From NCBI GenBank assembly GCA_964503955.1, contig CAZDCG010000004.1, positions 16,181-80,180 of the forward strand: a stretch of DNA of 64,000 nt. The letters run 5' to 3'. This stretch comes from an uncultured Gammaproteobacteria bacterium. GTDB lineage: Bacteria; Patescibacteriota; Patescibacteriia; VMEV01; CAYQCH01. Shown in pieces: positions 15,703 to 38,140 of the stretch (within the stretch, counting starts at the first letter, position 1; each line of letters begins with the position of its first letter). A program made the translations under genes and the position numbers. The notes beneath the pieces were generated by a model, which was given only the letters and a program-made list of their open reading frames with translations, ran no database searches and was not told the DNA's origin.

Positions 15703-16609
15703 CCAAAAAACCGGCCTGAAAACAAACCGGAAAAATACCCTCGCTGCAGTGCCGAGGTATTGGATTGCACGTAGGATTGTTAGTAATACGCGAAAGAAAA
15801 GGCGTTTTACAGGGCGGGGGATAGAGCAAGTCTTTCCCGATTAACCCGAAGGCTCCCACTTTGTCAACAAGATCTCAATGCCGGAAGCTGCCAGAATGCC
15901 GGGAGTTGCTAAGGATTAATTTAACGTAAGAAAAAACAGGAGAGTCGACATCGGCCCTCACTGTTTTGATACACGAATATTAGCGTTTTCTGGCAGAGTT
16001 GTCAACCATTTTCCAGATTTCTTAACTAATGTTAGCACAAAAATGATTAGCATCGAGTATGGCTGGCTTTCCTCTGGCATCTGGTTTCAAGATCCATTTC
16101 TAAATCTAACCCACCCGATACGATCTGACGTTCCAGGTACAAATAAGATGTAAAGGATAAGACATAGATGAGATGGTTCTCTCTCGAGAGAAGCTTCCCC
16201 CCTCTTGAAAAGAGGGGTAAGGATAAACCAAGAGCAAAGATAGATGGTCTTGGGGGATTTCTTTATAAAGCAATCAACAACGAAAAAGCCCCTCAATAAA
16301 GAGGAGCTTTCTTAGCATCCAAAAAGAATGTGCAGAAATAACAGGCGGCGTCATCGTACAGTCACAGAATAAATAGTTGTCTAACTCGTTATGCCGCACT
16401 TGCGGATCGCAAGCATTGGATCCGCTGATAACCTGTTGTTTTTTCGTACCCCGACAAAGGCCGCGCACTGGCTGCGCAATCTTTGTCGAGGGATGAGATG
16501 GTTGCGTACTATCCTTTCCGCCACGTTCATCAGCGATAAACGCAATGGGTAGGTGCCAGGCGGCCGCGCGGGTATGCGCAGCCGCCTGGCGGGGAGCCGG
16601 GATCGTGCT

Positions 16610-16729
16610 CTAGCTGTAGTAGCCCTCCCAGAACTGGCGGTTGGCCCGGCGCATGTGCTCGTGCGCCGTGATCAGGGTGGCGTACTTCTCAGCCAGCTTG
16701 GCGATGCGGTGCTGCTCGTTGTTCAACAT
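16610..16729 (-). CDS. Island ORF P1, 39 aa, hypothetical
   Basis: High-GC3 codons; SD AAGGAGGG 9 nt upstream of the ATG. Confidence 0.35.
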   Translation of the reverse strand: MLNNEQHRIAKLAEKYATLITAHEHMRRANRQFWEGYYS

Positions 16730-16905
16730 GTTAAGGGCCCTCCTTCTTACTTGGCCCCCGCAATCGATCAAGATATCGTCTGTGAATCTGAGAAGTCTTC
16801 AGAGTCTGTAATATCTTGCTCAATTATGGGGGCGCGTCGTTCGTGCATCCAATCCTTGGTGGGGACGGGACGACGAACGACTCGCTTGTGCTGCCCCGGG
16901 AGGGG

Positions 16906-17139
16906 CTAGCGGAGGAAGAACTCGATCTTGCTCTCCTCCTCGTCGAGGCCGATGGCGTCGTTGCTCAGCTCGAGCGAGATGAGCAGGCGCTCGTCCTGCG
17001 GGATGCGAGCGAGAAGGCGGTTGACCCCGCGCTCGTCGCCGTCCTGCACGGCCTTCTTGAACGCATCGCCGAGCCGGGGCTCGACCATCGAGAGAGCGTT
17101 CTGGATCTTCTTGAAGTTGTGCGTGATGGCCCAGTTCAT
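16906..17139 (-). CDS. Island ORF P2, 77 aa (MNWAITHNFKK...), hypothetical
   Basis: High GC3; SD GGAGGGAG upstream; the longer 113-aa ORF in the track probably over-extends the true start. Confidence 0.45.
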   Translation of the reverse strand: MNWAITHNFKKIQNALSMVEPRLGDAFKKAVQDGDERGVNRLLARIPQDERLLISLELSNDAIGLDEEESKIEFFLR

Positions 17140-17362
17140 GGACCTGACCTTTCTCCCTCCAAGGAGGGCGTTGAGAGTTGATCCTTCTTCTTCGGGATAA
17201 TCCCGCAGCTGGCATCCATCAAATGGATGGCAATTGCGGGGGGACAAGAGTTCCTGGGGTGGTTCTCTCGTCCCGAGGGGGAGCGAGCTCGATCTCGCGA
17301 GAGGCAGTCTGCCTCATCTGCAAGAGAGCTCGCTCCCCGGTCGGGTCGCCGGCGGCGAGGTG

Positions 17363-17506
17363 CTAGCGGCGGATGCCGCGCTGGTTCGCCCAGTTCCTGA
17401 CGAACCGGGCGCTGTCGCTCACGTAGTACGGCTTGCGGTCCTCGGCCTGCTTCTCCGTGGAGGTGGCGGGGGTGAGCGCGTCGTTCTTCGTGTTGGGGTT
17501 CGTCAT
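17363..17506 (-). CDS. Island ORF P3, 47 aa, with an Lsr2-like C-terminal DNA-binding motif (FVRNWANQRG versus Lsr2 IREWARRNG)
   Basis: High GC3; SD GAAGGAAAA upstream; motif resemblance recalled from memory only. Confidence 0.35.
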   Translation of the reverse strand: MTNPNTKNDALTPATSTEKQAEDRKPYYVSDSARFVRNWANQRGIRR

Positions 17507-17690
17507 GACGGTTTTCCTTCTTCTCCCAGGCGAACTGCCTGGTCCGGGTTTCCGGACGAGAAGCACAACCTTGTTCTGCTTCTTGTTCGGCCCGGTACAA
17601 CTTGCTTGCGCTGTGTACCGGGTCCCCGGGGGAGCTTCGCGCTCGTCGACTGAGTCGCGCGAAGCTGCCACCCCGGGTTGTCGTGTCGCC

Positions 17691-18224
17691 CTAGCCGACG
17701 TTGCGGATCAGCTTGTGCCGGTCCGAGCAGCGGCGCGGGCGGGGCGAGGCGCCGATGGAGGGCGAGCTCGTCACCGTGGTGACGGTCGTCCAGAGGCGCG
17801 ACTCGTCCGCGATCTTGCCGGCCGCCTCGTAGAGGGCGGCGCGGGCGCGGCGGCTCTTGGGGTTCTTGTCGCTGAGCTCCTGGGCCTTGTCGCGCAGCTC
17901 GCTCAGCTCCTTGCCCGTCGCGGTCTGGAGCTTGGTCTCGATCTCATCGAGCTGCTCGTCGAGCAGGCACTCGGCCTTGGTCTTGTCGTAGTAGGCACGG
18001 TTCTCGGCCCACCTGTTCTTCTCGGCACTGCGGCGCTTGGCCTGCTCGAGCTTCTTGGTGTGCTCGCGCTTGCGGAGCTTGCGCGCGCGGCGGGTCTCGC
18101 CCGTGCCGGACCTGGCGAACTTGCCGCCGGTGTGGCAGACGGGCGAGGGCGCGATGCTCTCGGCGTCCGGGACGGAGCCGAGCAGCTTGAGGAGCGTACC
18201 GACGCGGTTCTTCACGGTCTTCAC
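17691..18224 (-). CDS. Island ORF P4, about 177 aa, basic K/R/E-rich coiled-coil protein (probable GTG start), hypothetical
   Basis: Very high GC3 (aag/gag/ctc/cgc codons); SD GGAAGGAA before the GTG. Confidence 0.5.
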   Translation of the reverse strand: MKTVKNRVGTLLKLLGSVPDAESIAPSPVCHTGGKFARSGTGETRRARKLRKREHTKKLEQAKRRSAEKNRWAENRAYYDKTKAECLLDEQLDEIETKLQTATGKELSELRDKAQELSDKNPKSRRARAALYEAAGKIADESRLWTTVTTVTSSPSIGASPRPRRCSDRHKLIRNVG

Positions 18225-18347
18225 GTATTTCCTTCCTTCTTCTACCGGTTCATCCGGCCAGAGAACATCAAAGGTGATGCGTTCTGGTCGGTCCCGGAGC
18301 CCCACGCGGTTCGCGCGAAGCTCCGGAAGCGTTGCCGCAGCCGACCG

Positions 18348-18626
18348 CTAGGCGGTCTGCAGCTGGGGCGAGATGACGCGCGCGGTCGCCTGTTCGACGA
18401 GCTGGCGCATCCGCTCGCTGAGCCCGAGCGGAGTGATCTTCTCCGCCACGATCTCGATGAGCTCGTCCACGGACTTGACCTTGTCGAGCTCGTCCCTCAG
18501 CCAGCGGACGATCTGGTTGTCGTCCATGCCGACCTGGCTCGCGGGGATCTCCTCGCCGGTCTCGTGATCGACACAGTCCGGGACGAAGCCGTTCAGATTG
18601 CGGAGTTTCCATTCGACGAGAATCAT
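18348..18626 (-). CDS. Island ORF P5, 92 aa, acidic protein (MILVEWKLRNLNGFVPDCVDHETGEEIP...), hypothetical
   Basis: High GC3; SD AAAGGAGA 4-5 nt upstream of the ATG. Confidence 0.5.
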   Translation of the reverse strand: MILVEWKLRNLNGFVPDCVDHETGEEIPASQVGMDDNQIVRWLRDELDKVKSVDELIEIVAEKITPLGLSERMRQLVEQATARVISPQLQTA

Positions 18627-19343
18627 GAGTCTCCTTTGACTCTTGGGGTGGAAGCAGGGCACATGCCCGATTGGAAGGGGAAGGTATGTGAAAGAGCGGC
18701 AGGCATGCGGCCCTTTTTCCACCACAAGAGAAAATGAAAACCCGCCGATGCCAAGATTTTTTCGCTTCCGCCCAAGGCGGATCCGCCTCTGGGGGAAAAG
18801 CTACGAAATCTCAAGAGGTTTTGGCGGGCAGGCCGACTCGCATGAGAAGAGCATATCCTCGTCCCTCCTAAGAGAGCCTTGGGTGATGCGAACGATTTAC
18901 CCAGAACGTAGCCGGAGCCACCTTCTTGGGATAAATTGGACGCGGGACGGGCGTTTGAGCCTTTATGGGGCCTGGGCGCCACGCCGGTCTCTCCTCATGC
19001 GAATCGGCGGTGTCGAGCTTTCAAAGATCAGTCCATCAGCTTGACAAAACACTATATCATATGGTCTAAAATTTGTCAAGACTGGTGAAACAGCTTAGCA
19101 AGAATTTGCTAAAATTAGCGATAAATTCGTGTTAAGATTGTTCAACATCATAAAATAGGACGGACGGGATCTTAGCTTATCTGTACATTTTTGACAAGAG
19201 CAAACATGGGGAAAAAGATCGTTTCATATAAAAAAGCCCTTGTTTTTGTCAGGGATCAAACATGGTGATAGGATTCAATCACGAGAAGAAATGGTCACTG
19301 GACGAGTATTTACCCGTCTAGTGATCTTCATATAAGAGAATTT

Positions 19344-21761
19344 ATGGCCTACGACCACAGAGAAATCGAAGCTAAAATGCAGGCGTACTGGAAAGAAATC
19401 GACGCGTTCAAAACACATGATGCTTCTGGAAAGCCAAAAGCGTATATCCTTGATATGTTTCCCTATCCTTCAGGAGCCGGTTTGCATGTCGGCCATGTTG
19501 AGGGGTATACCGCAACCGATATTCTCGCCCGCTATAAACGGATGAACGGGTTTGAGGTGCTTCATCCCATGGGCTGGGACGCTTTTGGTTTGCCGGCCGA
19601 AAACTACGCCATCAAAGTCAACCGCCATCCGCGCCTGACAACCGACGAGAATATTCAAAACTTCAAGCGCCAGATCAATGCCATGGGAAAAAGCGTTGAC
19701 TGGAGCAGGGAAATCGACACCAGTTCTGAACAGTACTATCGCTGGACGCAATGGTTTTTCCTCTTTTTGTATAAAAACGATTTGGCTTATCGCAAAGAAG
19801 CCCCGGTGAATTGGTGTGAACATGACCAGACCGTTTTAGCCAATGAACAGGTTGTCGACGGCAAATGCGAACGCTGCAAAAACGAAGTGGTGCAAAAAAA
19901 TCTGCCCCAATGGTTCTTCAAGGTGACGTCCTATGCTGACCGCCTGCTCAAAGATTTGGACGCGCTTGATTGGCCTGAGGCGCTCAAAGAAATGCAGCGC
20001 AACTGGATTGGCCGTTCTGAGGGGGCGCGCCTGACTTTCAAAGTTGCAAATGCATCGGCTGAACATACCGGCGAATCCATCGAGGTTTTTACAACACGGC
20101 CGGATACCTTGTTTGGAGCCACGTATCTTGTCTTGGCGCCTGAGCATCCTTTGGTTGAACAGCTCACGACAAAAGAGCAGCTTTTGGCCGTGCAGGCGTA
20201 TCAGGATGAAGCTTCACGGCGGTCTGAACTGGAGCGCGTGGGAACGGATCAGAAGAAAACCGGTGTCTTTACCGGTTCGTATGCTGTACACCCGTTCACC
20301 GGAGACCTCCTGCCGATCTGGATTGCAGACTATGTGCTGATGGGATATGGCACTGGCGCCATCATGGCTGTACCCGCGCATGATGAGCGCGATTACGCCT
20401 TCGCGTCAGCATATGATCTTCCCGTCAAAACGGTCATCGAGCCGGCTGACAAAGAACATACGCAGCATGAGCTGCCATTTACGGGCGAAGGGATTCTGAT
20501 TCATTCCGACGAATTCAGCGGGCTTGAAAGCCATGAAGCAAAAGGCAAGGTCGCGCTTAAAGCAGGCGGTGAAATTGCCGTGAACTATAAAATCCGTGAC
20601 TGGCTTTTATCTCGTCAGCGATTTTGGGGCGCACCAATCCCGATCATCTACTGTGATGCTTGCGGTGTTGTCCCTGTTCCGGAAGATCAGCTGCCGGTTG
20701 TCTTGCCAAAAGAAGCGGATTTCAAATTGCAGGGTGATGGCAAATCGCCGCTGGCGCGCGTTGACGAGTTCGTGAACACCACTTGTCCGAAATGTGACGC
20801 CCCAGCGAAGAGAGAAACCGACACCATGGATGGTTTCGTCGATAACTCATGGTACTTCTTCCGTTATCTTGATCCAAACAATGATCAGGCATTTGCGTCT
20901 GCCGAAACGATCAAGCGCTGGATGCCCGTTGATGTCTATGTCGGTGGCGCGGAGCACGCTGTCGGTCATTTAATCTATTCTCGTTTCTTTACCAAGGTCT
21001 TGTTCGATCATGGGTATATCGATTTTGAAGAGCCGTTCCTGAAACTTGTAAACCAGGGAATCATCCTGGCGGAAGATGGGCAGAAGATGTCGAAGTCTTT
21101 AGGGAATGTGATTAATCCAGATGACGTAATCGCCGAATACGGAGCCGACACATTGCGTCTCTTCGAGATGTTTCTTGGTCCCTTGCAAGACGCAAAACCA
21201 TGGGACACAAAGGGGATTGTTGGCATGAAGCGCTTCTTAGAGCGTGTGCATCGCTTCTTTACCGAAAATCATGTGCGTTCAGATGCCGCTGCAGATCAGC
21301 AGGTAACAGCGCAGCTGCACCGCACCATCAAAAAGGTGACCCATGATATCGAGGCACTTCGTTTCAATACGGCTATCGCTTCGATGATGGAAATGCTTAA
21401 TGCGATGAACAAAAAAGGCGAGCTACCAATGGTTGAGGGTGTGGTTTTCCTCAAGCTGCTTTCTCCGTTCGCGCCGCATCTGGCGGAGTACCTCTACAAC
21501 GAGATGGGGAATGAAAATTCGCTTGGGATGACTGACTGGCCCGCCTATGACGAGAACCTTGTGAAAGAAGAACAGGCGGTGCTCGCCGTTCAGATCAATG
21601 GCAAGGTTCGTGATAAAATCGTTGTGACAAGCGACGCGGACGAAGCAGCTGCAAAGGCCGCCGCGCTCGCGTCTGAAAAAGTCGCTCGTCATCTTGAAGG
21701 ACAGGAAATCAAGAAGGTGATTTATGTGCAGGGAAGAATTATCAGTTTCTTGACGGAGTAA
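19344..21761 (+). CDS. leuS: Leucyl-tRNA synthetase
   Basis: 805 aa; HVGH (HIGH) motif at PYPSGAGLHVGHVEGY, KMSKS motif, and the leucine-specific editing domain pattern. Confidence 0.95.
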   Translation: MAYDHREIEAKMQAYWKEIDAFKTHDASGKPKAYILDMFPYPSGAGLHVGHVEGYTATDILARYKRMNGFEVLHPMGWDAFGLPAENYAIKVNRHPRLTTDENIQNFKRQINAMGKSVDWSREIDTSSEQYYRWTQWFFLFLYKNDLAYRKEAPVNWCEHDQTVLANEQVVDGKCERCKNEVVQKNLPQWFFKVTSYADRLLKDLDALDWPEALKEMQRNWIGRSEGARLTFKVANASAEHTGESIEVFTTRPDTLFGATYLVLAPEHPLVEQLTTKEQLLAVQAYQDEASRRSELERVGTDQKKTGVFTGSYAVHPFTGDLLPIWIADYVLMGYGTGAIMAVPAHDERDYAFASAYDLPVKTVIEPADKEHTQHELPFTGEGILIHSDEFSGLESHEAKGKVALKAGGEIAVNYKIRDWLLSRQRFWGAPIPIIYCDACGVVPVPEDQLPVVLPKEADFKLQGDGKSPLARVDEFVNTTCPKCDAPAKRETDTMDGFVDNSWYFFRYLDPNNDQAFASAETIKRWMPVDVYVGGAEHAVGHLIYSRFFTKVLFDHGYIDFEEPFLKLVNQGIILAEDGQKMSKSLGNVINPDDVIAEYGADTLRLFEMFLGPLQDAKPWDTKGIVGMKRFLERVHRFFTENHVRSDAAADQQVTAQLHRTIKKVTHDIEALRFNTAIASMMEMLNAMNKKGELPMVEGVVFLKLLSPFAPHLAEYLYNEMGNENSLGMTDWPAYDENLVKEEQAVLAVQINGKVRDKIVVTSDADEAAAKAAALASEKVARHLEGQEIKKVIYVQGRIISFLTE

Positions 21762-24870: not shown

Positions 24871-27800
24871 ATGCAAACAAGGAAAACAAAAATACTGGTG
24901 GGATTCATGGCGATCGGTCTTTTCATCACGTCTTTTCTTCCAAAGCCGGTTCATGCCGGCCTTCCGGTTTCCGATATCGGATCAATGGTTCAAAGCGCGG
25001 GACAATTTATTAAAAACACGTTTGACAAGATTCAAGAGACATTGTTGGACGAATTGGCAGTTGTTTTTTTCAATAATATCGTTCAGACCTTTGTCAATAA
25101 TCTGGCGGCGGAAACCGCCCAATGGATTGCCAGCGGAGACGAAGGGCAAAAGCCTTTGCTGTTTACCTCCGACTGGCAGGATTATCTTGAGAAAGCCGGT
25201 GAAGACGCGATCGCCTTTGCCGCAATCGGGTTTGCGGACGCGGTTGGCTTAGGAAATATCTGTATTGCTCCGGAAATTGCGATTGACATTATCCTGCCGC
25301 AAATCGAGCAGCCGGGAACAACCAAGCCGCGTTGTAGTCTCGATGATTTAAAGAAAACCTGGGATGTCACAAGCCCGGATTTCTTGCAGAATTTCACCCT
25401 TTCTTTTCAAACCGATCAGAACGACATAGGAATTGCCATTAGCTTCCTTGCGAATCTTGAAAAGGAGAAAACCGAAAAAAAGGAGGCAGCCGAAAATGAA
25501 CGCGATCAAAGCCCTTTTAAAGCCGTGAAAGATGCGATCAGCGGATTAACGGAAACGCCGGCACCTCTGGTTCAGAAGCAGGTGGAAAAAGTTGAAGATG
25601 GCACAACGGTAACTACCTATACATATACCAATCCTATCGGCGTATTGACCGGAGCTATCCAGGTTTTCGCCGGCACCCTCATGGGGCAGTATCTGAATAA
25701 ACTGCAAAGCGGATTTTTCTCCTTGGCTGATGCCGTCCCCGCGGAAGAAGACGTTGCGTCGCTTGTGCGAGGCTCGCTTTCCGATCCTCTTTCCACCGGA
25801 CCAACCGGATCGCAAACAGCACAGCTGAAATTCACCGATGTGTTCAAGCCGAATTTGCGCCAGGCAAATGATTTCAATATTTTGGCTGAACTGGCTGCCT
25901 GTCCTTCTGAAGTTCGATACGCCAGTATTTACAATTGTGTGATTGATTCAGGGTTCATGCAGGCGCTGTCAGGAGGGCGGAATGGATTTTTAACGGTCCG
26001 CGAGGCAGTGCAGCAAAATCTGCTGCATGGAAACTGGGTATTTGGATATGTTAATCCCGGTTCAGGAGCCGAGCCAAGCTATTTGAACGGGTACGCGTAT
26101 AGCAATATGAAAAAGCTGCGCCGGCTCAGAATTGTTCCTGTCGGCTGGGAAATGGCTGCATTGCGCGCACGTTCGCTTGGACAGAGCGTCACCTTGCTTG
26201 ATGTGATCAATTCGTATAACGATCAGGGCTCTCCTTTTTATAAATTGGTTGATCCGGAATGGGTGCTGAAAGTGCCAACCATGCGCTGTGCGGCAAAAGC
26301 ACCTGGGCAGATTCTTCAATCAGGAGGAACCGATCGCGTCGCCGAATGCGTTGATATTCAGGACTGTATTGCCTTTGGCGATGATGGCGAATGCCGAGCG
26401 TGGGCGTATTGTACGGCCGACCAGCGCGAATGGCGATTCCCTGCCGAGCAATGCCCGGAACATTATGCGACCTGCGAACAATTCTATTCTTCCGGCGAAG
26501 ATACGACACAAAATCTCTGGCTTTCTTCCACATTGGAATACGAAGGCTGCAATGCACAGACTGCAGGATGCACATGGTACTCAACGGTTAAAAACTCCGC
26601 CGGCGAATGGCAGGAAACAAATCGTGTCCATTTAACGTCTGCTGTACAGGCCTGTGATCCAAACGATGCGGGATGTCATCTTTATATTCGCATGGGCAAT
26701 GGTTCCAACCTGATCCGTAACGGCAGTTTTGAAGATGATGCGGGGCATAATTATGTGCTCGGACTGGGTGATACGGTTGCGGAAAACAGCATTCCCGACG
26801 GCTGGTCAGCGCGGCAGGCGCTCATCTCACTCAACGATGATGCCCAGCATGGAGAAGCATCCGTCCGCATCCAGCCGCAGCCAGGCGGAGAATGCCGCCC
26901 TGGATTGCAATATGAAGCACCGCTTGGACATTTCGAGATCGGTCAGCAATATACGCTCAGCGGACGCGTCCGAACGGAAAATGTCACTCCGGCAGATTTG
27001 CAGCTGTTCTTTCAGGGAATCACCTTCACCGTTGAAGATGTTAATAATGTTTGGAAATCATTCGCCTTTACCTTTGTCATGCCGTCAACAACACGTTCGT
27101 ACACCTTTGTGCTGGCAGGCAATAACGGGGATTGCGCGAATCTGAATCCAGGCGGAGCGGTTTTCTACGATGCCATCCAGCTTGAACGCAATACCTTGCC
27201 GACCTCCTATAAAGAGTATGGCTCTGTAAACCAGGTCAGCTTGAAGAATGCGCCTGCCTGTACATTTGAAGATGTCGGCTGCCAGCGCTATCTTCCTGTG
27301 GATCGAAAGAACGCGGCAACGGTCACGGGGGTTGCGACAGGACAGGATCTCTGTCCGGCTGAATGTGTCGGGTATGCCACCTACGAACAGCAGGAAACTG
27401 ATCTTGAGCCTGAGCGTATTGTGAATTTTATTCCATCTTCCGCAGATGTTTGTTCCGCTCAGGAAGTCGGTTGTGAGCAGTTCACCAATTTGGACGTAGT
27501 CGCGCGGGGAGGAGAAGGGCTTGAATACTATTCGCAAATCCGCCACTGTGAAAAACCACAGCCGCAATGCCAGACATACTTCGCCTGGGAAGGAAGTGAT
27601 GTAACCGGCTTCCAGCTTGTCAATTTCAGCCTGCTTGCCATCAATGAAGATGGTACGGGCGTGCCGCAAACAACCGATGGCAGCGTCACCTGTGATCCAA
27701 ATGACGCGGATTGCCGCGAGCTGATCGGCGAAGATGGATCACGGTCATTCCGCAATTTGAGCAAAACCATCACCTGTTCGGAAGCCTGCGTGCCGCTGCG

Positions 27801-30800
27801 CGCTCGTCCAGGTCTTGTGAATGAACAGGAATGTATCGCACGGCTTGGCGAATGGGATGCGCTCACGCAGCGCTGTGTTTTCCAGGCGATCGCGTCAGAA
27901 AGCCGTGTCTGCCGCGCCGAAGCGCTTGGCTGCCGCGAGTATCTTGGAACAACCGGCCATAATGTGGCGGTTGTGCTGGCTGAAAACTTTGAGAATGGGA
28001 CAATCGGCGACTGGATCAATGCTTCACTTAGCACAGAGTCTGTCAAAGTCGGCGGCCATTCCATGAAGCTTGGCAATCAGCAGGGAACCATCAATGCGGA
28101 AACCCGAACGGTTGTAGAAGATATCGCCGCCGACACTGCGTATACGCTCGAGCTGAACGCCCGTGCTTCCGTCAGCGATTTCCTCACGGTTACGGCTTAT
28201 CTTGGCAATGCGCCGGTCGAAGCAAACCGCATCGGTAGTTTTGTTACCGGGACCCTGTCATGGAATAAGTACCGTCTCGGGCCGATCACGACTCCTACGG
28301 AGCTTTCAGGCGTTCAGCAGCTGATTCTCGTGGTAGAAGGAGCCTCTAATAAGCCGGATATTATCAGCCTATTTGCGGACGATATCACCTTGCGCCGCAT
28401 CAATAGCAGTTTGTATCTCGCAAAAGATTCTTGGGAAACACCAAATACATGTGAAACAAATCCTCCGCTGGCCGGCGGTTCAGCTTCGCGTTCTATGGTG
28501 GGATGCCAGGCATACCGGATTGAGGGAGACACTTCAAATCAGACGCAGTTTCTCAAATCATTTACACGGCTTTGTTCAGAAGACAAGATCGGATGTGAAG
28601 CCCTGATTGACACGCATAATTCTGTTGCGCCATACCGCGAAGTGTATCAGCCCGGCAATCTCGCCGAAGTTGTTGTGCCTGAAGATAGTGTTACCTATCT
28701 GGTTAATAGAAAAGAGTATCGATGCCAGGCGGAACAAGTGGGCTGCATGGAACTTGGCAAGCCGGTTTTTGACCAGAACAATCAGATTACTTCATTCAAC
28801 TCCGTCTATCTCAAAAATAATCCGGACCAGTACGCAAGTATTCTCTGTCCGCAGGAATCACTGCGATGCGAAGCATTTACCAATAGCCGCAATGAAGTCG
28901 TATACGCCAAGAATCCGGGTCTGCAGCAATGTGAATACCGCGAAGTGCCAAATTCCTTCCCGGTGCGCTACGCATGGTTCAAGGTCGGTGGAACCGAAGA
29001 AAATCCTGTCGACTGTTTGCAGGCAAAGGATAATAGCTATGTGAACCGATGTGTTCCTTCAGCCGTGAGCTGTACGCAGTTTTATGAACCGATTACGCAG
29101 CAGTCATATTATTACAAGAAGAGCACCTTGCCGGGGACAGCGGCTTCTGAATGCAATGGCGTGGTGGACTGGAAGAAAGGCTGCGTCTTGTTTGATGATC
29201 AGAGCGTACGCAGCAAGTATTTCAAATCCGGTGACGATATTGATATCGTCGGCGCGGCGCAGGGCTGCCAGACAGGCGATGTCGGCTGCAATACAAATAC
29301 CTTGCTTCGCGTTCAGCTTGACCGTGTCTGCAGCCAGTGGCTGACCGGTGTCAGCTCAGGTTATTCCTGGGATCAGAATCTGCAGACCTACAAATCATTT
29401 AATTACGATATTGGACGTTGTCTGGAATATGATCCACTCAATCCTGCGGTTTGTCTGCAATGGGATAATGCGGATGACAAGCCGTTGCTCACAGAAGAAT
29501 TCTACAAAAACCGCGATACATCATGGGTGGGCGATGATTATACCGGATACTCCATTCCATTTGCTTATCCTGTTGAAACGCTCAAGCAATACAGTCTGAA
29601 TATCACTGAAGACGGCACTCCGTCCGAGTATCGTCTGGCATATCTTGAAGTTCCTCCGAATCAGCAAAGCTGTCTTACCTCTGCCGATTGTCCGCAGGGA
29701 GGCGGCATTGAGCAGGTTTGCCGTTTGGAATTGAATCCGGACAGCGGAGATTTCCAAGGATCATGTTTCATCAACCGCGGAATCTCACGTGGAGGAACAG
29801 CATCTGAGGGAGAATGCCGCGCGTATCCGGAAAACGATTCTCCATTCCCTCCATCGGTTGCCACCTTCTATCCTGATACAGATGCCGAAAATCCGGGAGG
29901 CATCAGCTCAGTCAATCCGCTCTTTGCCAATGCCAATATCGGTACGGCCGGAGAGAATGTCGAATGTAATTACGTCAAAGCCTACTATGCGGGTGATCGC
30001 CGCTATTACTCGCTTGATACGATTATTCCATCAACCATTACCGTGCGAGGCGAGCCGCAAAAATTCGACAAAAAAGAAGTCTATTACGGCTGGGAAGGCT
30101 ATTGTCTGGAACGAGACAATTCCCGCATCATTAATGGAGACCGTTCACAAACTGCTTGCTTGACCTGGTATCCGGTTGATCTCATCCAGGGCGCGAGAGA
30201 CTTGAACAATACCGATATCAATGCGGGATACTACGCGGATCATGAACAGACCATGTACTGCGCGCAGGCGGTCTTTGCCGAATATCTCACTCCAAGGGAA
30301 TCCTGCGGGGCATGTCCTTCACCACACTATGAAACCATCGTTCAGCGCAGCGGCACCTGTACGCATCCGTTTAAGGCTCCCGACTTGCTTGAATCAACCG
30401 GCACAAGATTCTTGAATCTCAATGAGACAGATCAAACGATTATTTTCGGCCTTGTTTCATTCTTCAGCTTTGGCGCGGGAGCAAGCATATTCCAGGCCCT
30501 GGCAGCCTTTGGCGTGCTGGATCTGGCAAGCGATCTGCTTGGAACGGATGAATATCCTGAAGTGACCTGTATTCCGCGTTACGGCGAAGGGTGGTATCCA
30601 AAAGTCTATCCAAATCCTCCGTTTGATCCGGAAAATCCGAACAATGCCCTTATGTGCAGCGTGGTGGCGCGTATCCAAAGCCCAGCTGGCGTGAACAAAG
30701 CCTATACAGACCGCATCCATGATACTGAATATATCGTGCCGGAGCTTGGCTGGACATACATCCAGCAAAACGTTCCGTTTGGCAGCGTTCGTGCGGGAAC

Positions 30801-32370
30801 AGAAAAGCTTGAAGAACTTGTTGAACCATTATTGCTGAAGCCGGCAACGCAGTTTGTAGAATGCAATGACTGCCGCGTTCCAGGTGAAGATCCTGAAAAT
30901 CCGGATCCATTGAAATTCGGTGTTTGCCAGGATCGTGATCCAAATAAGAAAGGACGTCCATGTCCGCTCTTCCCGAATGCCGGTTCGCCGTACAGTCTGC
31001 TCTCGCTTTATCCGCAATGGGCCAATAATGATTGGGTCCGCGTGCGAGCCGATAATCAGGTCTGGACAGATCAGGCCATCAATCAGCCATATACGCGAAC
31101 CGAACAGTTGGAAGACGGCACAAGACGGCTGCAGGAACTCTTTGCTAAATCCTACGGGGTCTGGTATTGGCAGCTCGGATTTGAAGCGGTTTGCGTCGGA
31201 ACATGCCAGGGAGGACCAAGAGAAGGTGAATTCTGCAAATCAGTCAACGAATGCGGTGATACGGATTCATCTATTGCCTATACATGCCAGCAGGCCAACC
31301 AGGAAACCGGCCTCTGTGTCGGCGGAGTAAAACACACATATTCATGCACAAGCGATCTGGATTGTTCCGGACCAGCCATTGAGGATCTCCAGACCGACTT
31401 TGTTGATATTCCCGGCTTCAACTGTGTTGAAGCGCCTGATGACGCGAATAGCGTGTTCATCTGTGAAGGAGGTCCATGGAAAGGCAATGCGTGCCAAACC
31501 GATGCCGACTGCGCTCCGCCGGTTCTTGACGGTAAATGCGATTTCACGCAGAACCGCTGTGTCGGCCAGGTCAATGGCCAGACAATCTGGTCCGCGAATT
31601 CCGGACAGATCTGCAATAACTCAGCTGAGTGCAATGCGGTTGCCACCTGCCGCGTGGATCGATGTTCCACCGAGATTGGTAAACCAAATACCGGGCTCTG
31701 CGACGGCTTGCAGGCCGGACAAGCATGCGGTGATTCTTCCGGACGAAATCAGTATGTTCAGGATGATGCCATTGGCTGGGACCTGATCCGTGACAATCCA
31801 TCCGTTGCCGAGCCGCCTGTGATTCAGCCGACCATTCCAGATTCCACCAGTCCAAACGGCTATGCGGAAGGATTCATTGCGAATGATGGCGGATTCTCCG
31901 TCAATGGAAGGGTAAACGGCACAATCACGAGCACGGAAGGGCGCGCGCCGGTAACCGTCAGCTTCTATGCCTATAACAGCAATGGAGAACAAATGCCATT
32001 GCGTGTGATCATGGTTGATTGGGGCGACAATACTGACCTGTCTACCTCGGTTGGTTCCTTCAAGAATCATAAACATGTCTGCCGGCGCTCCTGCAGCTAT
32101 AATGTCCTGATCTCCTGTGATGCGGACAGAGATTGCCAGAACCAGCAATTCCCTGACGCGACCTGTAATCCGGAAAATTTCGGCGACAGCCTTGATGCAT
32201 GCGTAGAAGACACGGAAAATGAATTCGGTTTCTTCTCCTTCTCTCATACCTATACGTGTGAAGGCGCAACCGACTGTGTTTACACGCCTCGCGTACTGGT
32301 ACGTGATAACTGGGGAGCCGTCACGCGCGTGACATGGCCTGGACAAATCGTGGTCTCTCCAAGACAGTAA
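24871..32370 (+). CDS. Giant (2499 aa) cysteine-rich extracellular protein with an N-terminal signal-anchor and at least two CBM4/9-like (galactose-binding-like) modules; putative adhesin/surface protein
   Basis: Uninterrupted 7.5 kb ORF; N-terminal TM; more than 100 Cys in CxxC/CxnC patterns; NGSFEDDAGHNY...SVRIQP and ENFENGTIGDW...SMKLGN resemble CBM_4_9 starts. Confidence 0.8.
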   Translation: MQTRKTKILVGFMAIGLFITSFLPKPVHAGLPVSDIGSMVQSAGQFIKNTFDKIQETLLDELAVVFFNNIVQTFVNNLAAETAQWIASGDEGQKPLLFTSDWQDYLEKAGEDAIAFAAIGFADAVGLGNICIAPEIAIDIILPQIEQPGTTKPRCSLDDLKKTWDVTSPDFLQNFTLSFQTDQNDIGIAISFLANLEKEKTEKKEAAENERDQSPFKAVKDAISGLTETPAPLVQKQVEKVEDGTTVTTYTYTNPIGVLTGAIQVFAGTLMGQYLNKLQSGFFSLADAVPAEEDVASLVRGSLSDPLSTGPTGSQTAQLKFTDVFKPNLRQANDFNILAELAACPSEVRYASIYNCVIDSGFMQALSGGRNGFLTVREAVQQNLLHGNWVFGYVNPGSGAEPSYLNGYAYSNMKKLRRLRIVPVGWEMAALRARSLGQSVTLLDVINSYNDQGSPFYKLVDPEWVLKVPTMRCAAKAPGQILQSGGTDRVAECVDIQDCIAFGDDGECRAWAYCTADQREWRFPAEQCPEHYATCEQFYSSGEDTTQNLWLSSTLEYEGCNAQTAGCTWYSTVKNSAGEWQETNRVHLTSAVQACDPNDAGCHLYIRMGNGSNLIRNGSFEDDAGHNYVLGLGDTVAENSIPDGWSARQALISLNDDAQHGEASVRIQPQPGGECRPGLQYEAPLGHFEIGQQYTLSGRVRTENVTPADLQLFFQGITFTVEDVNNVWKSFAFTFVMPSTTRSYTFVLAGNNGDCANLNPGGAVFYDAIQLERNTLPTSYKEYGSVNQVSLKNAPACTFEDVGCQRYLPVDRKNAATVTGVATGQDLCPAECVGYATYEQQETDLEPERIVNFIPSSADVCSAQEVGCEQFTNLDVVARGGEGLEYYSQIRHCEKPQPQCQTYFAWEGSDVTGFQLVNFSLLAINEDGTGVPQTTDGSVTCDPNDADCRELIGEDGSRSFRNLSKTITCSEACVPLRARPGLVNEQECIARLGEWDALTQRCVFQAIASESRVCRAEALGCREYLGTTGHNVAVVLAENFENGTIGDWINASLSTESVKVGGHSMKLGNQQGTINAETRTVVEDIAADTAYTLELNARASVSDFLTVTAYLGNAPVEANRIGSFVTGTLSWNKYRLGPITTPTELSGVQQLILVVEGASNKPDIISLFADDITLRRINSSLYLAKDSWETPNTCETNPPLAGGSASRSMVGCQAYRIEGDTSNQTQFLKSFTRLCSEDKIGCEALIDTHNSVAPYREVYQPGNLAEVVVPEDSVTYLVNRKEYRCQAEQVGCMELGKPVFDQNNQITSFNSVYLKNNPDQYASILCPQESLRCEAFTNSRNEVVYAKNPGLQQCEYREVPNSFPVRYAWFKVGGTEENPVDCLQAKDNSYVNRCVPSAVSCTQFYEPITQQSYYYKKSTLPGTAASECNGVVDWKKGCVLFDDQSVRSKYFKSGDDIDIVGAAQGCQTGDVGCNTNTLLRVQLDRVCSQWLTGVSSGYSWDQNLQTYKSFNYDIGRCLEYDPLNPAVCLQWDNADDKPLLTEEFYKNRDTSWVGDDYTGYSIPFAYPVETLKQYSLNITEDGTPSEYRLAYLEVPPNQQSCLTSADCPQGGGIEQVCRLELNPDSGDFQGSCFINRGISRGGTASEGECRAYPENDSPFPPSVATFYPDTDAENPGGISSVNPLFANANIGTAGENVECNYVKAYYAGDRRYYSLDTIIPSTITVRGEPQKFDKKEVYYGWEGYCLERDNSRIINGDRSQTACLTWYPVDLIQGARDLNNTDINAGYYADHEQTMYCAQAVFAEYLTPRESCGACPSPHYETIVQRSGTCTHPFKAPDLLESTGTRFLNLNETDQTIIFGLVSFFSFGAGASIFQALAAFGVLDLASDLLGTDEYPEVTCIPRYGEGWYPKVYPNPPFDPENPNNALMCSVVARIQSPAGVNKAYTDRIHDTEYIVPELGWTYIQQNVPFGSVRAGTEKLEELVEPLLLKPATQFVECNDCRVPGEDPENPDPLKFGVCQDRDPNKKGRPCPLFPNAGSPYSLLSLYPQWANNDWVRVRADNQVWTDQAINQPYTRTEQLEDGTRRLQELFAKSYGVWYWQLGFEAVCVGTCQGGPREGEFCKSVNECGDTDSSIAYTCQQANQETGLCVGGVKHTYSCTSDLDCSGPAIEDLQTDFVDIPGFNCVEAPDDANSVFICEGGPWKGNACQTDADCAPPVLDGKCDFTQNRCVGQVNGQTIWSANSGQICNNSAECNAVATCRVDRCSTEIGKPNTGLCDGLQAGQACGDSSGRNQYVQDDAIGWDLIRDNPSVAEPPVIQPTIPDSTSPNGYAEGFIANDGGFSVNGRVNGTITSTEGRAPVTVSFYAYNSNGEQMPLRVIMVDWGDNTDLSTSVGSFKNHKHVCRRSCSYNVLISCDADRDCQNQQFPDATCNPENFGDSLDACVEDTENEFGFFSFSHTYTCEGATDCVYTPRVLVRDNWGAVTRVTWPGQIVVSPRQ

Positions 32371-33509: not shown

Positions 33510-34522
33510 CTGTCTACCAATGAAATGTCCGATTTCTTAGAAATGCGGACCTCTTTCTGGGAATTATCTTATGCAAAATCTCCAAAGTGAACAGAATACT
33601 GTTTTCTAGGCAAGTCGCATAATGATTTCTGGAAAGGAAATCCTTGCGGCTGGCTTACGGGCCAGTTTTTTCGTCCCTCAAATTTCACCCCCGAGACTGG
33701 ATGATCCGGTCATTCGATCCCGGTTGTGAAGACTGCATTTTGACAATTGAATATAACGCAATACAAACCAGTAATGTCACATGCATCTTTGTGAAGATAC
33801 ATGCGACGCAAATGCAATTTACAATGCAGTGTCTTAAATGACACTGCTGCTACAAATGCTTATTGTGGCCATTCAAGTTCATTGAATGGTTACCTCAATA
33901 AGGGCAAATGTGTGAATGCCTAGACATCTGGAGACGATGAAGGACGTGGCAGCCTGCGAAAAGCTTCGGTGAGGTGGCAAGCAACCTGTGACCCGGAGAT
34001 GTCCCAATGGGGAAACCCGGCCGTGTAAAGCACGGTCATCACATGACTGAATACATAGGTCAGTGAAGACAACCTAGGGAACTGAAACATCTTAGTACCT
34101 AGAGGAAAAGAAAACAGCAAGACCCTTTATAAATCTGCAGACATCACTTCGGTGCTGACTGTCAGATTTATAAAGGACGTGATTCCCTTAGTAGCGGCGA
34201 GCGAACGGGGAAAAGCCTAAACCCTATCGGTGGGCCTTTCTGTAAGATGTGGGATTTATCTTATATCAAGCAGTCAGGTTAAAGGATTGTGCCGTTGCCG
34301 ATTCGGTGTTGTGAGGCGAGTCGTTAGGAATCACAATATTCCTAGATAGTTGGAGTTCATATAGAAGAAGTTCCTGGAATCGGAACGCCAAAGAAGGTGA
34401 TAGCCCTGTAATCGAAATATGCTTCTCCACCTATGGACTATGTCCTCAAGTACAGCGGGACTCGTGAAATCCTGTTGGAATCAGGGGTGACTATGCTCCA
34501 AGGCTAAATACTACCAGATGAT

Positions 34523-34559
<37 letters not shown>

Positions 34560-36061
34560 CACCCCGGTGAGGGGTCGTGAAATAGACCTGAAACCATTTG
34601 CCTACAAGGAGTCGAAGGTCCTTCGGGACTGACGGCGTGCCTATTGAAGAATGAGCCAACGAGTTTGTTCTATGTTGCTTGTTTAATCTCTATATAGAGA
34701 GAAGGCATAGTGAAAGCGAGGCTTAACCGCCGAACTGAGAGGAATAATTCCCGTCTCGGGTCATTGACCCGTCCGGGGATTTATTCCTCTCTTCTGCAGC
34801 ATAGACAAGACCCGAAGCCGGGTGATCTATCCATGGCCAGGTTGAATCTCATCGAAAGATGAGAGGAGGACCGAACCCACGCGCCGTGCAACACGCGGGG
34901 ATGAGTTGTGGATAGCGGAGAAATTCCAATCGAACTCGGCTATAGCTGGTTCTCCCCGAAACAGTTTTTGGACTGGCCTGCGATCGTCCCCTCTGGGGGT
35001 AGAGCACTGTTTGAGGTTCGGGCCTTCGGGTACCGTCCACAGACAAACTCCGAATACCGGAGGATTATAATCGCAGAGTTACACTATGGGGGCTAAGCTC
35101 CATTAGTGAAAAGGGAAACAGCCCAGATCGCCAAATAAGGTCCTTAAATCTTCGTTAAGTGTGAAAGGTGGTGAGGCGGCTTATACAACGAGGAGGTTGG
35201 CTTAGAAGCAGCCATCCTTTAAAGAAAGCGTAATAGCTCACTCGTCCAGCTGCCTTGCGCCGAAAATGTAACGGGGCTAAACGAAGTACCGAATTTGCGG
35301 GTCTATACCTTTCGAGGTATGGGCGGTAGGGGAGCGTTCTTATCTGCGTTGAAGCCCAAACGTGAGAATGGGTGGAGTGATAAGAAGTGAGAATGTTGGC
35401 ATAAGTAGCAGAAATGCGGGTGAGAACCCCGCACACCGAAAACCCAAGGTTTCCTGGGCCATGAAAATCAGCTCAGGGTTAGTCGGTCCTAAGGCGAGGC
35501 TGAAAAGCGTAGTCGATGGACAGCAGGTTAATATTCCTGCACCACGGTGTTGACTGATGGAGTGACGCTTGATCAAAGTCTCCGCGTAGTTTGGTTATCT
35601 ACGTTGGGGCAGGCAACTGGCGCTATTGGCAAATCCGTAGCGCAATACAGAAGCCTGCATCTGAAGAGGAAGCCCTCGGGTGGAATCGACGGAGGCGGAG
35701 GTTGAGCCAAGAAAAACTTCTAGGGTTAATCAGCATCGTGTCCGTACCGTAAACCGACACAGGTGGGTGAGGCGAGAAGCCTCAGGTGAACGAGAGAAAC
35801 ATGGTTAAGGAACTCGGCAAAACAGCGGTCGTACCTTCGGTATAAGGCCTGCCTACGCCCTTCGGGGTTGTAGGTCGCAGCGAAAGACTCCAAGCGACTG
35901 TTTACCAAAAACACAGGTCCCTGCTAAAGCGCAAGCTGATGTATAGGGGCTGATGCCTGGCCAGTGTCCGAACGTTAAGAGGAGAGGTGATCCAATTTAT
36001 TGGCGTAGCCTTGAATCCAAGCGCGGATGAACGCCGGCGATAACTATAATCGTCCTAAGGT

Positions 36062-36831
36062 GAATTTGTTGCCTTAGTGGGGTGAAAGCCCCCTCTTCCG
36101 AACTGCCTATGCCGGGCAGATGTAGGAGAAAAATCTGGCTATATGCTGGAATATCTGGAGAATTCTGTGCTCCTAGGGTATACTGTCACCATAGTATGCC
36201 TAGGAAAAACGCCACAGATGTAGCTTTGGTTGAAGATTTACCAAAGTTGCCAGACAATCAGCAGGAAAGACCAGAAATGATTGGTTGGATTGTAGGATTT
36301 ACTGACGGTGAAGGTTGCTTCTCTGTTAGTCTTATCCGTAACAAAACAACCTCTACTGGGTGGCAGGTGTTTCCTGAGTTTGTTATCACGCAAGGAGAGA
36401 AAAGCAGATCAGCGCTTGAATTACTTCAAAAACATTTCAAATGCGGACAGCTAATCCTCAATAAGCGCTATGACAATCATCGCGAACATCTAATAAAATA
36501 CTGCGTCAGGTCTCGTAGAGACTTGAAAGAAAAAATTATTCCCTTCTTCAAAAAAGCTCAGCTTTTGACGGCGAAGAGAAATGATTTTGAAATCTTTTGT
36601 AAGATCATCGTTCTTATGGAAGAACGAAAGCATCTGCATCTTTCAGGATTGAAAACAATCGCGAAACTGATCGAACAGATGAACCGCAGAAAACCCTCCT
36701 CATTTCTGGAATCCTCAGAGACTACACGCCGGAACGATACATAATCGTAAGATATAGTCCGACCCCTATGGCGACATAGGGAGAATGGCAGAAATGACCA
36801 TTCCTCTACATGTGGTAGAAGTAACAAATTG
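36062..36831 (+). mobile_element. Group I intron inserted after U of CCTAAGGU (E. coli about position 1917) in 23S rRNA, ending in omega-G
   Basis: 23S exon sequence breaks after cgtcctaaggt and resumes exactly at agcgaaattccttgtcggg; the intron houses a LAGLIDADG ORF. Confidence 0.7.
36196..36744 (+). CDS. LAGLIDADG-family homing endonuclease (single-motif type); the better SD-supported start is at 36277 (MIGWIVGFTDGEGCF)
   Basis: IVGFTDGEGCF LAGLIDADG motif and overall I-CreI-like size (about 155-180 aa). Confidence 0.8.
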   Translation: MPRKNATDVALVEDLPKLPDNQQERPEMIGWIVGFTDGEGCFSVSLIRNKTTSTGWQVFPEFVITQGEKSRSALELLQKHFKCGQLILNKRYDNHREHLIKYCVRSRRDLKEKIIPFFKKAQLLTAKRNDFEIFCKIIVLMEERKHLHLSGLKTIAKLIEQMNRRKPSSFLESSETTRRNDT

Positions 36832-36884
<53 letters not shown>

Positions 36885-37109
36885 GGAGACTGTCTCAACC
36901 ATGTACTCGGTGAAATTGCATGACGAGTAAAGATGCTCGTTACGCGTAGCAGGACGAAAAGACCCCGTGAAGCTTTACTACAGCTTGATATTGTCTTATT
37001 GCTTCAACTGTTCAGCATAGGTGGGAGCCTTCGGGCGCCAGTGAGATACCACCCTGTTGTCGTGGTAAGGCTAACCTTGCGCCGTCTATCCGGTGCGGGG
37101 ACAGTATCT

Positions 37110-37144
<35 letters not shown>

Positions 37145-37363
37145 AAGTAACGGAGGCGTTTACAAAGGTTGGCTAGCTCCGGATGGAAATCGGAGCGATA
37201 GTGTAAAGGCACAAGCCAGCTTTACTGCAAGACAGACACGTCGCGCAGTTACGAAAGTAGAACTTAGTGATCCGACGATCCAATATAGGATGGTCGAAGC
37301 TCATCGGATAAAAGTTACTCCGGGGATAACAGGCTGATCGCGCCCAAGCGTCCACAGCGACGG

Positions 37364-37425
<62 letters not shown>

Positions 37426-37438
37426 TGGCTGTTCGCCA

Positions 37439-37490
<52 letters not shown>

Positions 37491-38032
37491 CTATCCGCTA
37501 TGCGCGTTAAGATTTGAGAACCTCCTTCTCTAGTACGAGAGGACCGAGAAGGACGAACCTCTAGTGTACCAGTTGTCCCACCAGGGGCACCGCTGGGTAG
37601 CTATGTTCGGGTCGGATAAGTGCTGAAGGCATCTAAGCACGAAGCCGTGTTCAAGATTAGATCTTTATTCCTCCTGGGAGACGACCAGGTTGATAGGCTG
37701 CAGGTGTAAGCCCCGTGAGGGGTTCAGCCGAGCAGTACTAATGGATTGAGGTAACCTTTCAGTGAATTTCTCTGCGTCATATTTCGCGCGCTTCTTTGTT
37801 GAGAGCTCCGGTGCTCGACGCCGTACATCAGTACGGTTTACTCCGCACCTCGCTCTCGCCTCGAATCGCACTGAAATCTGAACGAGATTAAAGCCGCTGA
37901 AAAGATAGCATAAATACGTTTGCGATCACATGCGACTCGCAAAGGTGCAGTTGATATTATTGGAAGTATTGCGTTCAGAGAAATGGAATGGAAAGAGACG
38001 ACTAATCATCTAGTCTGCTCCTTCTGGTGCCA

Positions 38033-38140
38033 TTTCCAGAGGGGTCACACCTGTTCCCATCCCGAACACAGCAGTTAAGCCCTCCAGGGCCGATGGTAGT
38101 GCACAGCGCGAGAGTAGGTCGGTGCCAGGTTATGAAAAGA
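38033..38140 (+). rRNA. 5S rRNA
   Basis: UCUGGUGCC...GGUCACACCUGUUCCCAUCCCGAACAC...GCCGAUGGUAGU...GAGAGUAGGUCGGUGCCAGG, with helix I pairing between the ends. Confidence 0.8.

Follow-up and report, generated by a model that had tools for sequence, protein, structure and literature searches.

A GC3-saturated five-gene island with structured spacers, possibly of foreign origin, between the M23-peptidase and leuS genes of a Patescibacteria chromosome

The DNA analysed here is a 64-kb stretch (the window) from a member of the Patescibacteria or candidate phyla radiation (CPR), and it carries a compositional island with five small genes between an M23-peptidase gene and leuS. We favor, with a probability of roughly 0.55, the interpretation that the island is a self-contained, five-cistron operon of ∼2.8 kb with foreign codon usage, acquired horizontally from an unsampled source rich in GC at third codon positions (GC3). 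The donor would have had GC3-saturated genes and could have been a bacterium, a phage, a plasmid, or a CPR-specific mobile element, and the transfer would have occurred before the split of the two strains that have been sampled. Judged from independently assembled contigs, the segment is stably integrated between its two neighbors. Coordinates throughout are positions within the window, which averages 50% GC.

The sequence-only reading had singled out 16545-18640 as a segment of foreign-looking composition, and there is indeed a compositional outlier at this place. The tetranucleotide distance is 0.57 for the island window compared to a median of 0.23, no windows in the 64 kb have larger distances than those of the island, and the island is the single one of its kind within the window. 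The GC level of 70 to 75% attributed to it is overstated because only 13% of 200-nt windows reach 0.70; these windows range from 0.53 to 0.74, and the mean over 16545-18640 is 64.4%. Similarly, the GC content was described as jumping over a few bases near 16545, but the left edge climbs across ∼150 nt. The M23-peptidase and leuS genes are divergently transcribed, and the gap between them is 3,641 nt, in agreement with the 3.6 kb first given. The location of the segment stands, but the unit is wider than proposed, running from the promoter at ∼19079 to the terminator at 16283 and including a leader and a trailer. The short repeats said to crowd the gap are present as inverted repeats, forming hairpins, but tandem repeats are not, and Tandem Repeats Finder finds essentially nothing in the island.

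All five of the minus-strand open reading frames (ORFs) previously regarded as credible (39, 77, 47, ∼177, and 92 amino acids) are present, and their sequence features identify them as genuine coding sequences. From the leuS side these are P5 (18348-18626; 92 amino acids, acidic with a pI of 4.6, GC3 of 0.91, and the Shine-Dalgarno sequence [SD] AAAGGAG), P4 (17691-18224; 177 amino acids, with a GTG start, basic with a pI of 10.2 and 40 lysines plus arginines, GC3 of 0.98), P3 (17363-17506; 47 amino acids, basic, GC3 of 1.00), P2 (16906-17139; 77 amino acids, mildly acidic with a pI of 5.1, GC3 of 0.95, SD GGAGGGAGAAAGG), and P1 (16610-16729; 39 amino acids, basic with a pI of 9.4, GC3 of 0.97, SD AAGAAGGAGGG). 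In a frame-resolved plot, three-base periodicity starts and stops exactly at the ORF boundaries, and the leader, trailer, and spacers are without any; decayed genes in the leader or trailer were rejected on this basis. A purine-rich SD precedes each ORF, as had been noted. The 10-mer AGAAGAAGGA has five occurrences in the window, three of which are upstream of P4, P3, and P2; it is positioned 9 to 10 nt ahead of the P4 and P3 start codons and ∼43 nt ahead of P2, which has a closer SD. P4 and P3 are also maintained at the protein level in the one relative identified (contig L005, described below), with in-frame indels and the same start position, at which the P4 homolog has ATG rather than GTG.

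The codon usage of these genes is foreign to the chromosome that carries them, as the comparison of GC3 and of the codon table with those of resident genes bears out. GC3 had been put near 90% and measures 0.91 to 1.00 in the five ORFs, whereas 34 resident ORFs average 0.53 ± 0.04 with a maximum of 0.61. When the same proteins are re-encoded with resident codon usage GC3 is 0.525 ± 0.023, and the observed value of 0.96 is 19 standard deviations off. Codons ending in A or T number only 17 of 427 in the island ORFs, and the preferences are strong for AAG among lysine codons (97% in the island versus 37% in resident genes), GAG among glutamate codons (95% versus 28%), and CAC among histidine codons (100% versus 23%). 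A 434-amino-acid ORF on the plus strand (17433-18737) was considered and rejected. It is a shadow cast by the GC3≈1 codons of P4 and P5, two genes in one frame; its composition is one of L/G/A/V/R/D/E, and the antisense frames hit stops in L005. We note that the gene calls of public assemblies (L086 and L087; window 16.9-18.7 kb) often choose antisense shadow ORFs (of 374, 139, and 112 amino acids) over the actual small genes, most of which go uncalled. P1 is the sole island protein also present in NCBI, on a 106-kb contig, and the other four are recorded from Logan assemblies only.

The five ORFs are flanked by a candidate promoter and an intrinsic terminator, both on the minus strand. The promoter (19051-19079) is of the sigma-70 type with TTGACA, a 17-nt spacer, TATAGT, and an extended TG (11 of 12 matches); it sits in resident-type DNA of 35% GC, and transcription is predicted to start near 19044. 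Five promoter-like sites were found where 1.2 are expected, and this one is the best match in the gap and the sole strong one on the minus strand upstream of the ORFs. The terminator (16283-16312), with a 12-bp stem and then a T-run, is the first canonical one downstream of the five ORFs on that strand. Behind the promoter is a structured 5′ leader (18627-19046; 420 nt, 56% GC, no coding periodicity) with a minimum free energy of −184.8 kcal/mol (z = −7.4; 0 of 100 shuffles equally stable) and a 20-bp long-range helix in which 18832-18851 pairs with 18989-19008. A structured 3′ trailer of ∼330 nt (16313-16609; z = −7.8) precedes the terminator and includes a 15-bp GC hairpin at 16555-16590 and a hairpin at 16444-16496.

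The spacers are likewise highly structured. There are four of them, 123 to 223 nt long, with sliding-window fold z-scores of −5 to −9 on the minus strand and weaker ones on the plus strand, which points to structure in the minus-strand RNA; within the ORFs, the fold z-scores are near 0. After every ORF comes a GC-rich hairpin (stem, ∼13 to 30 bp) that lacks a T-run, with further hairpins before the next SD. Spacer A (18225-18347) has a 17-bp hairpin without a U-tract after P5, a 5′-untranslated-region (5′-UTR) hairpin, a small hairpin, and then the SD AGAAGAAGGA (z = −6.4 on the minus strand versus −0.9 on the plus strand). Spacer B (17507-17690) has five successive hairpins and then an exposed SD, with the SD before P3 being unpaired in the predicted fold that was inspected. 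Spacer C (17140-17362; z down to −8.8) has a hairpin with 30-nt arms (17278-17338), two more hairpins, and an SD, and Spacer D (16730-16905; z = −8.5 on the minus strand versus −2.6 on the plus strand) has long hairpins at 16832-16885 and 16754-16833, followed by the SD AAGAAGGAGGG. No Rfam 15 family matches at its gathering score, the lone hit being a chance match to mir-1253 (E = 0.45; 22 bits versus 103).

From this layout we infer a single transcript that is processed or stabilized at its hairpins. It would be ∼2.76 kb long, starting near 19044 and ending near 16283. The U-less hairpins following the ORFs are probably not terminators and would act instead as processing sites or as barriers to 3′ exonucleases, and the 5′-UTR hairpins would protect 5′ ends. 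The predicted outcome is a set of stable mRNA segments from which each small cistron is translated independently. The closest analogies, and no more than that, are two operons with intercistronic stem-loops or processing sites, namely the early operon of phage T7, which is cut at RNase III sites, and the Rhodobacter puf operon. The island resembles these in having a host-type promoter, a leader, small genes with U-less hairpins and their own SDs, and a final terminator. It differs in having three to five hairpins per spacer rather than one and in that its processing is a prediction from the layout, and no sequence or protein similarity to the island was found in these systems.

Only one relative of the island was identified. 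Among 5.8 billion protein clusters, the sole homolog of P4 is P0002 (54% amino acid identity), and P5 and P2 have none. P0002 is encoded on a 1,014-bp contig (L005, from SRR30309627) in which P4, a spacer, and P3 are colinear with the window at 69% nucleotide identity. GC3 is 0.99 and 0.96 in the two L005 ORFs, while the 5′ UTR is 47% GC and the spacer is 54% GC. At positions with identical amino acids in families of at least four codons, 24 of the 72 codons differ between the copies, and both copies keep G or C in the third position. The RNA structures are similarly maintained. Spacer B and its L005 counterpart have 44 common pairs (RNAalifold), nine with compensatory double changes and none broken, and the hairpin around GAAGCAGAA...UGCUUC, together with the flanking CCGGAAACC, is near-invariant between the two known copies; this is a candidate for a new cis-regulatory RNA element. 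The UTR hairpin before P4 (CCAGA..CAUCA / UGAUG..UCUGG in Spacer A) is also kept in L005 with 14 pairs, as is the 5′ arm, which is the first, of the long post-P3 hairpin in Spacer C. These shared hairpins suggest that the entire array may be present in the L005 organism too.

The five predicted proteins are small, charged, and hydrophilic, and they are probably soluble, as none has a membrane segment; the acidic ones are P5 and P2, and the remaining three (P4, P3, and P1) are basic. Conserved C-terminal motifs are found in P4 (TTVTTVTSSP...RNVG) and P3 (Y.VSDS.RFV..WA..RGIRR). The AlphaFold model of P4 has confident long helices at residues 45-101, 105-120, and 125-153, and the fold, which is confident only in these helices, has no PDB match better than E = 0.9 using Foldseek. 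The AlphaFold2 (AF2) model of P5 is poor, and its predicted local distance difference test score (pLDDT) of 58 is too low for a structure search. Given how charge is distributed among them, and given the long basic helices of P4, the island proteins most likely bind nucleic acid or other proteins.

Family and sequence searches return very little. Nothing in Pfam, NCBIfam, or PADLOC scores over the curated cutoffs, with the best E values (0.003 to 0.05) being on coiled-coil segments; PHROGs match the island proteins only at E > 0.02, and there is no match among PDB sequences. No credible match emerged when P5 was run exhaustively by HMMER against 1.84 billion representatives. The two weak matches, P0005 and P0006, were set aside as mutually unrelated repeat proteins with scores summed over five to seven repeats. 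The island has no match, or only matches with E ≥ 0.1, in the INPHARED phages (blastn and tblastn), no match in the PLSDB plasmids (blastn), and none in IMG/VR (protein and pattern searches) or the JGI metagenomes. The conserved hairpin pattern has zero matches in metagenome and viral contigs, the back-translated P3 motif has zero in viral contigs, and the GTDB species representatives contain neither a P4 relative nor the window's genome. Two candidate resemblances were rejected. The P3 C terminus resembles an Lsr2 motif ('IR.WA...G..RGR'), but Pfam gives nothing and BLASTP against an M. tuberculosis Lsr2 sequence leaves the two unaligned; a phasin-like P4 (PF05597 and TIGR01837, both E = 0.015) is far under the cutoffs on a coiled-coil segment and is taken as compositional.

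Integration of the island at this locus is indicated by independent assemblies. Seven Logan contigs from five runs (SRR11843816, SRR11843817, SRR11843827, SRR11843830, and SRR11843835) are 100% identical to the window; these are L001, L002, L004, and L086 to L089, and L090, also extracted from the contig of L087, is not counted separately. Two of the seven each span the pair of junctions within a single contig, namely L001 (11645-19593) and L086 (9279-25702). A strain variant, L003, from a separate accession block (SRR19086438) is 96.5% identical over 18232-20366 and joins leuS to the leader and P5. It has nine mismatches in the 1.1 kb of promoter region, leader, and P5 (∼0.8%), with none inside P5, whose amino acid sequence is identical. 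L003 carries the leuS-proximal part of the island, and at least that part therefore predates the strain split.

Import from a GC3-saturated source is the simplest explanation for the island because its codon usage is unlike that of the resident genes, including the highly expressed S20 gene (GC3 of 0.60). The island fits within the broad class of horizontally acquired ORFan islets, with which it shares deviant codon usage and tetranucleotide signature, small orphan genes, a position between intact housekeeping genes, and absence from the GTDB species representatives searched. Unlike such islets, it lacks an integrase, a tRNA target, a significant direct repeat, and an identifiable donor, its GC excess is at synonymous sites and stems, and its proteins are resident-like in amino acid composition; no integrase, tRNA gene, or attC site adjoins it. 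An imperfect 13-nt direct repeat (CAAGAGCAAAGAT at 16229-16241 and CAAGAGCAAACAT at 19195-19207, plus strand) brackets the promoter, the ORFs, and the terminator and may mark a former insertion, but it falls short of significance; a target-site duplication was rejected, as 14% of shuffles are equal or better (p≈0.14).

Several observations weigh against import, amino acid composition among them. GC at the first and second codon positions (GC1 and GC2), the Gly-Ala-Arg-Pro (GARP) and Phe-Tyr-Met-Ile-Asn-Lys (FYMINK) fractions, and K/(K+R) are 0.60, 0.42, 0.27, 0.23, and 0.43 in the island, compared to 0.59, 0.39, 0.26, 0.24, and 0.51 in resident genes, and the L005 proteins are likewise resident-like. 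Codon-position GC generally correlates with genomic GC, and a Microbacteriaceae comparison ORF (GC3 of 0.94) fits that expectation, with corresponding values of 0.75, 0.56, 0.43, 0.10, and 0.12. The unpaired noncoding bases of the island are 45% GC, versus 32 to 38% in resident intergenic controls. The mosaic in L005, with G or C held in third positions despite the 24 codon changes in 72, fits selection as well as it does transfer. To these are added the nonsignificance of the flanking repeat (p≈0.14), homology searches for a donor that are all empty apart from one sister copy, the lack of homologs of P1, P2, and P5, and the finding of no empty site, in collections whose best LeuS matches (55 to 71% identical) are too distant to show one. 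The GC excess is thus confined to synonymous sites and RNA stems, which leaves room for selection at the RNA level. We nonetheless keep transfer as the leading interpretation because the counterevidence comes from a small sample of unusually charged proteins and L005 shows little of its surroundings.

The strongest alternative, although one we regard as appreciably less probable than transfer, is that the island is a native cassette, either long resident or moving only among CPR bacteria, in which G or C at synonymous positions is maintained by selection and was not passed down from a high-GC donor. The restriction of the GC excess to third codon positions and RNA stems is as expected from such selection, as are GC1, GC2, GARP, FYMINK, and K/(K+R) values indistinguishable from those of resident proteins, both here and in L005; an actinobacterial ORF at GC3 of 0.94 looks quite unlike the island. 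The 45% GC of unpaired noncoding bases and the resident type of the promoter and terminator point the same way, as does the maintenance of GC3 at ≥0.96 in two copies in which 33% of the comparable synonymous codons have changed. One possible mechanism is the loss of A/U-rich, single-stranded targets of an RNase Y-type enzyme, which together with the hairpins would yield very long-lived mRNAs, and an RNase Y gene is present within the window; another is translation in a different, GC-rich tRNA environment. However, the resident genes, S20 included, are without such a bias and prefer AAA and GAA, so AAG and GAG would not be favored by translational selection in this cell. In addition, no GTDB relative carries the genes, the L005 contig spans just 1,014 bp, the sample amounts to only 432 codons from unusually hydrophilic proteins, and we are not aware of any precedent for such strong selection at the mRNA level. 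A more specific version, which we advance only tentatively and consider slightly less probable again, is a small-protein operon, possibly CPR specific, in which synonymous G/C and the multihairpin spacers are jointly kept by RNA-level selection. Selection might act on extreme stability of the mRNA, on its resistance to RNases, or, more speculatively, on its use as a message by a GC-rich partner cell.

The sequence-only reading had proposed that, if the genome belongs to an episymbiont of high-GC hosts, the island derives from such a host or its phage and carries a possible toxin-like or regulatory module. This origin, with an actinobacterium as the host, is unsupported, and we consider it unlikely. 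The codon choices are of the high-GC actinobacterial type, and the U-less hairpins after genes and the GTG start resemble actinobacterial features. An episymbiont-type genome is also plausible, as LeuS relatives and the 23S rRNA gene mark the carrier as a CPR member. The LeuS relatives are metagenome-assembled genomes at 55 to 71% identity, followed by Falkowbacteria, Parcubacteria, Daviesbacteria, and Kaiserbacteria, and the 23S rRNA gene (33888-37758) is ∼950 nt longer than the Rfam model, with a LAGLIDADG homing-endonuclease ORF inside it (36082-36744). The 5S gene (38023-38130) follows the 23S gene, and there is no 16S gene within the window; an intron-bearing, apparently unlinked rRNA arrangement is a typical CPR trait. 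Saccharibacteria are the CPR group known to live on actinobacteria, but the 80 listed LeuS relatives include no record of them and are of the Parcubacteria/ABY1/Microgenomates type. Derivation from a host or its phage is further disfavored by the lack of any actinobacterial or actinophage homolog in any search and by an amino acid composition that is not actinobacterial. We also note that ten loci of LeuS relatives, mostly of the CPR type (L006 to L013, L077, and L078), have no comparable island upstream of leuS.

The proposed toxin-like or regulatory module finds no support in Pfam, NCBIfam, PADLOC, or PHROGs, with no matches to toxin, antitoxin, or defense families. As in type II toxin-antitoxin systems, genes for small acidic and small basic proteins are neighbors on the same strand, but there are five genes rather than two and no toxin or antitoxin domain. 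Type II toxin-antitoxin ORFs typically overlap or abut, and the structured 120- to 220-nt spacers of the island are unlike the way in which either toxin-antitoxin or phage genes are packed.

An integron-like array of promoterless cassettes with attC hairpins, of the kind known as clusters of attC sites lacking integron-integrases (CALINs), is very unlikely. The island does resemble integron arrays and CALINs in that its small orphan ORFs lie on the same strand, each is followed by an imperfect palindrome, and one upstream promoter serves the array. However, a regular-expression scan of both strands of 16200-19100 found no paired attC cores (R″ RYYYAAC and R′ GTTRRRY), there are several hairpins per spacer, L005 retains P4, P3, and the spacer between them as one unit in the same order, and no integrase is nearby. 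An assembly chimera, with high-GC reads of another organism joined into a CPR contig, is effectively excluded, since the composition shift itself and the breaks of two assemblies at 18150-18232 are outweighed by seven identical contigs from five runs, two crossing both junctions, and by a diverged strain in a different run that links leuS to the leader and P5.

These breaks are nonetheless worth describing. Two contigs from different samples, L089 (SRR11843816) and L003 (SRR19086438), stop at 18232, and another contig begins at 18150, which leaves SRR11843816 with a gap of 81 nt. At its very end, L003 differs from the window (…GGAAGAGA versus …GGAAGGAA). The break could reflect a strain bubble or a drop in coverage at the purine-rich SD and GC-rich start of P4.

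Gene regulation in CPR bacteria is almost unknown, and the island is of interest under either transfer or selection. It is reproducible and integrated, and it contributes five undescribed small-protein genes along with conserved RNA hairpins. If it arose by simple transfer, it is one more case of CPR gene flow, plus five unannotated families of small proteins; gene flow into streamlined CPR genomes is already documented (for example, PMC12455944). If GC3 saturation is instead selected, then the island would matter more, as an unusually clean natural instance of mRNA-level selection on synonymous sites that is coupled to conserved hairpins between cistrons, and GC3-saturated codons paired with resident-type amino acids would not be a trace of ancestry.

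At least five runs of the SRR11843816-35 block contain the same CPR strain, at 100% identity. Runs with neighboring numbers (SRR11843786-813) come from a project that sequenced whole genomes of Cryptosporidium hominis from stool (PMC8115899), in which the island-carrying runs are not listed, and the recurrence of the strain could have a common source in water, in a reagent, or in association with stool. The strain variant L003 differs from the window most strongly within leuS, where 60 of its 75 mismatches fall in a 455-nt patch (19500-19960) with ∼13% divergence, compared to ∼0.8% elsewhere; the patch looks like a recombination tract imported into leuS. The region between the island and leuS is dense in divergent promoter motifs, with TTGACA or TTGTCA on both strands at 19042, 19074-19079, 19192-19197, and 19246, in DNA of 35% GC. 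On the other side, the M23/LysM peptidase gene has an apparent promoter of its own (TTGACA-17-TAATAT; 15977-16005, minus strand) ∼270 nt upstream of its start, and its long 5′-UTR region includes palindromes at 16172-16218. Elsewhere in the window, a 2,499-amino-acid ORF (24871-32370) downstream of rsmA and of a gene for a TSP3-repeat protein probably encodes a giant surface protein.

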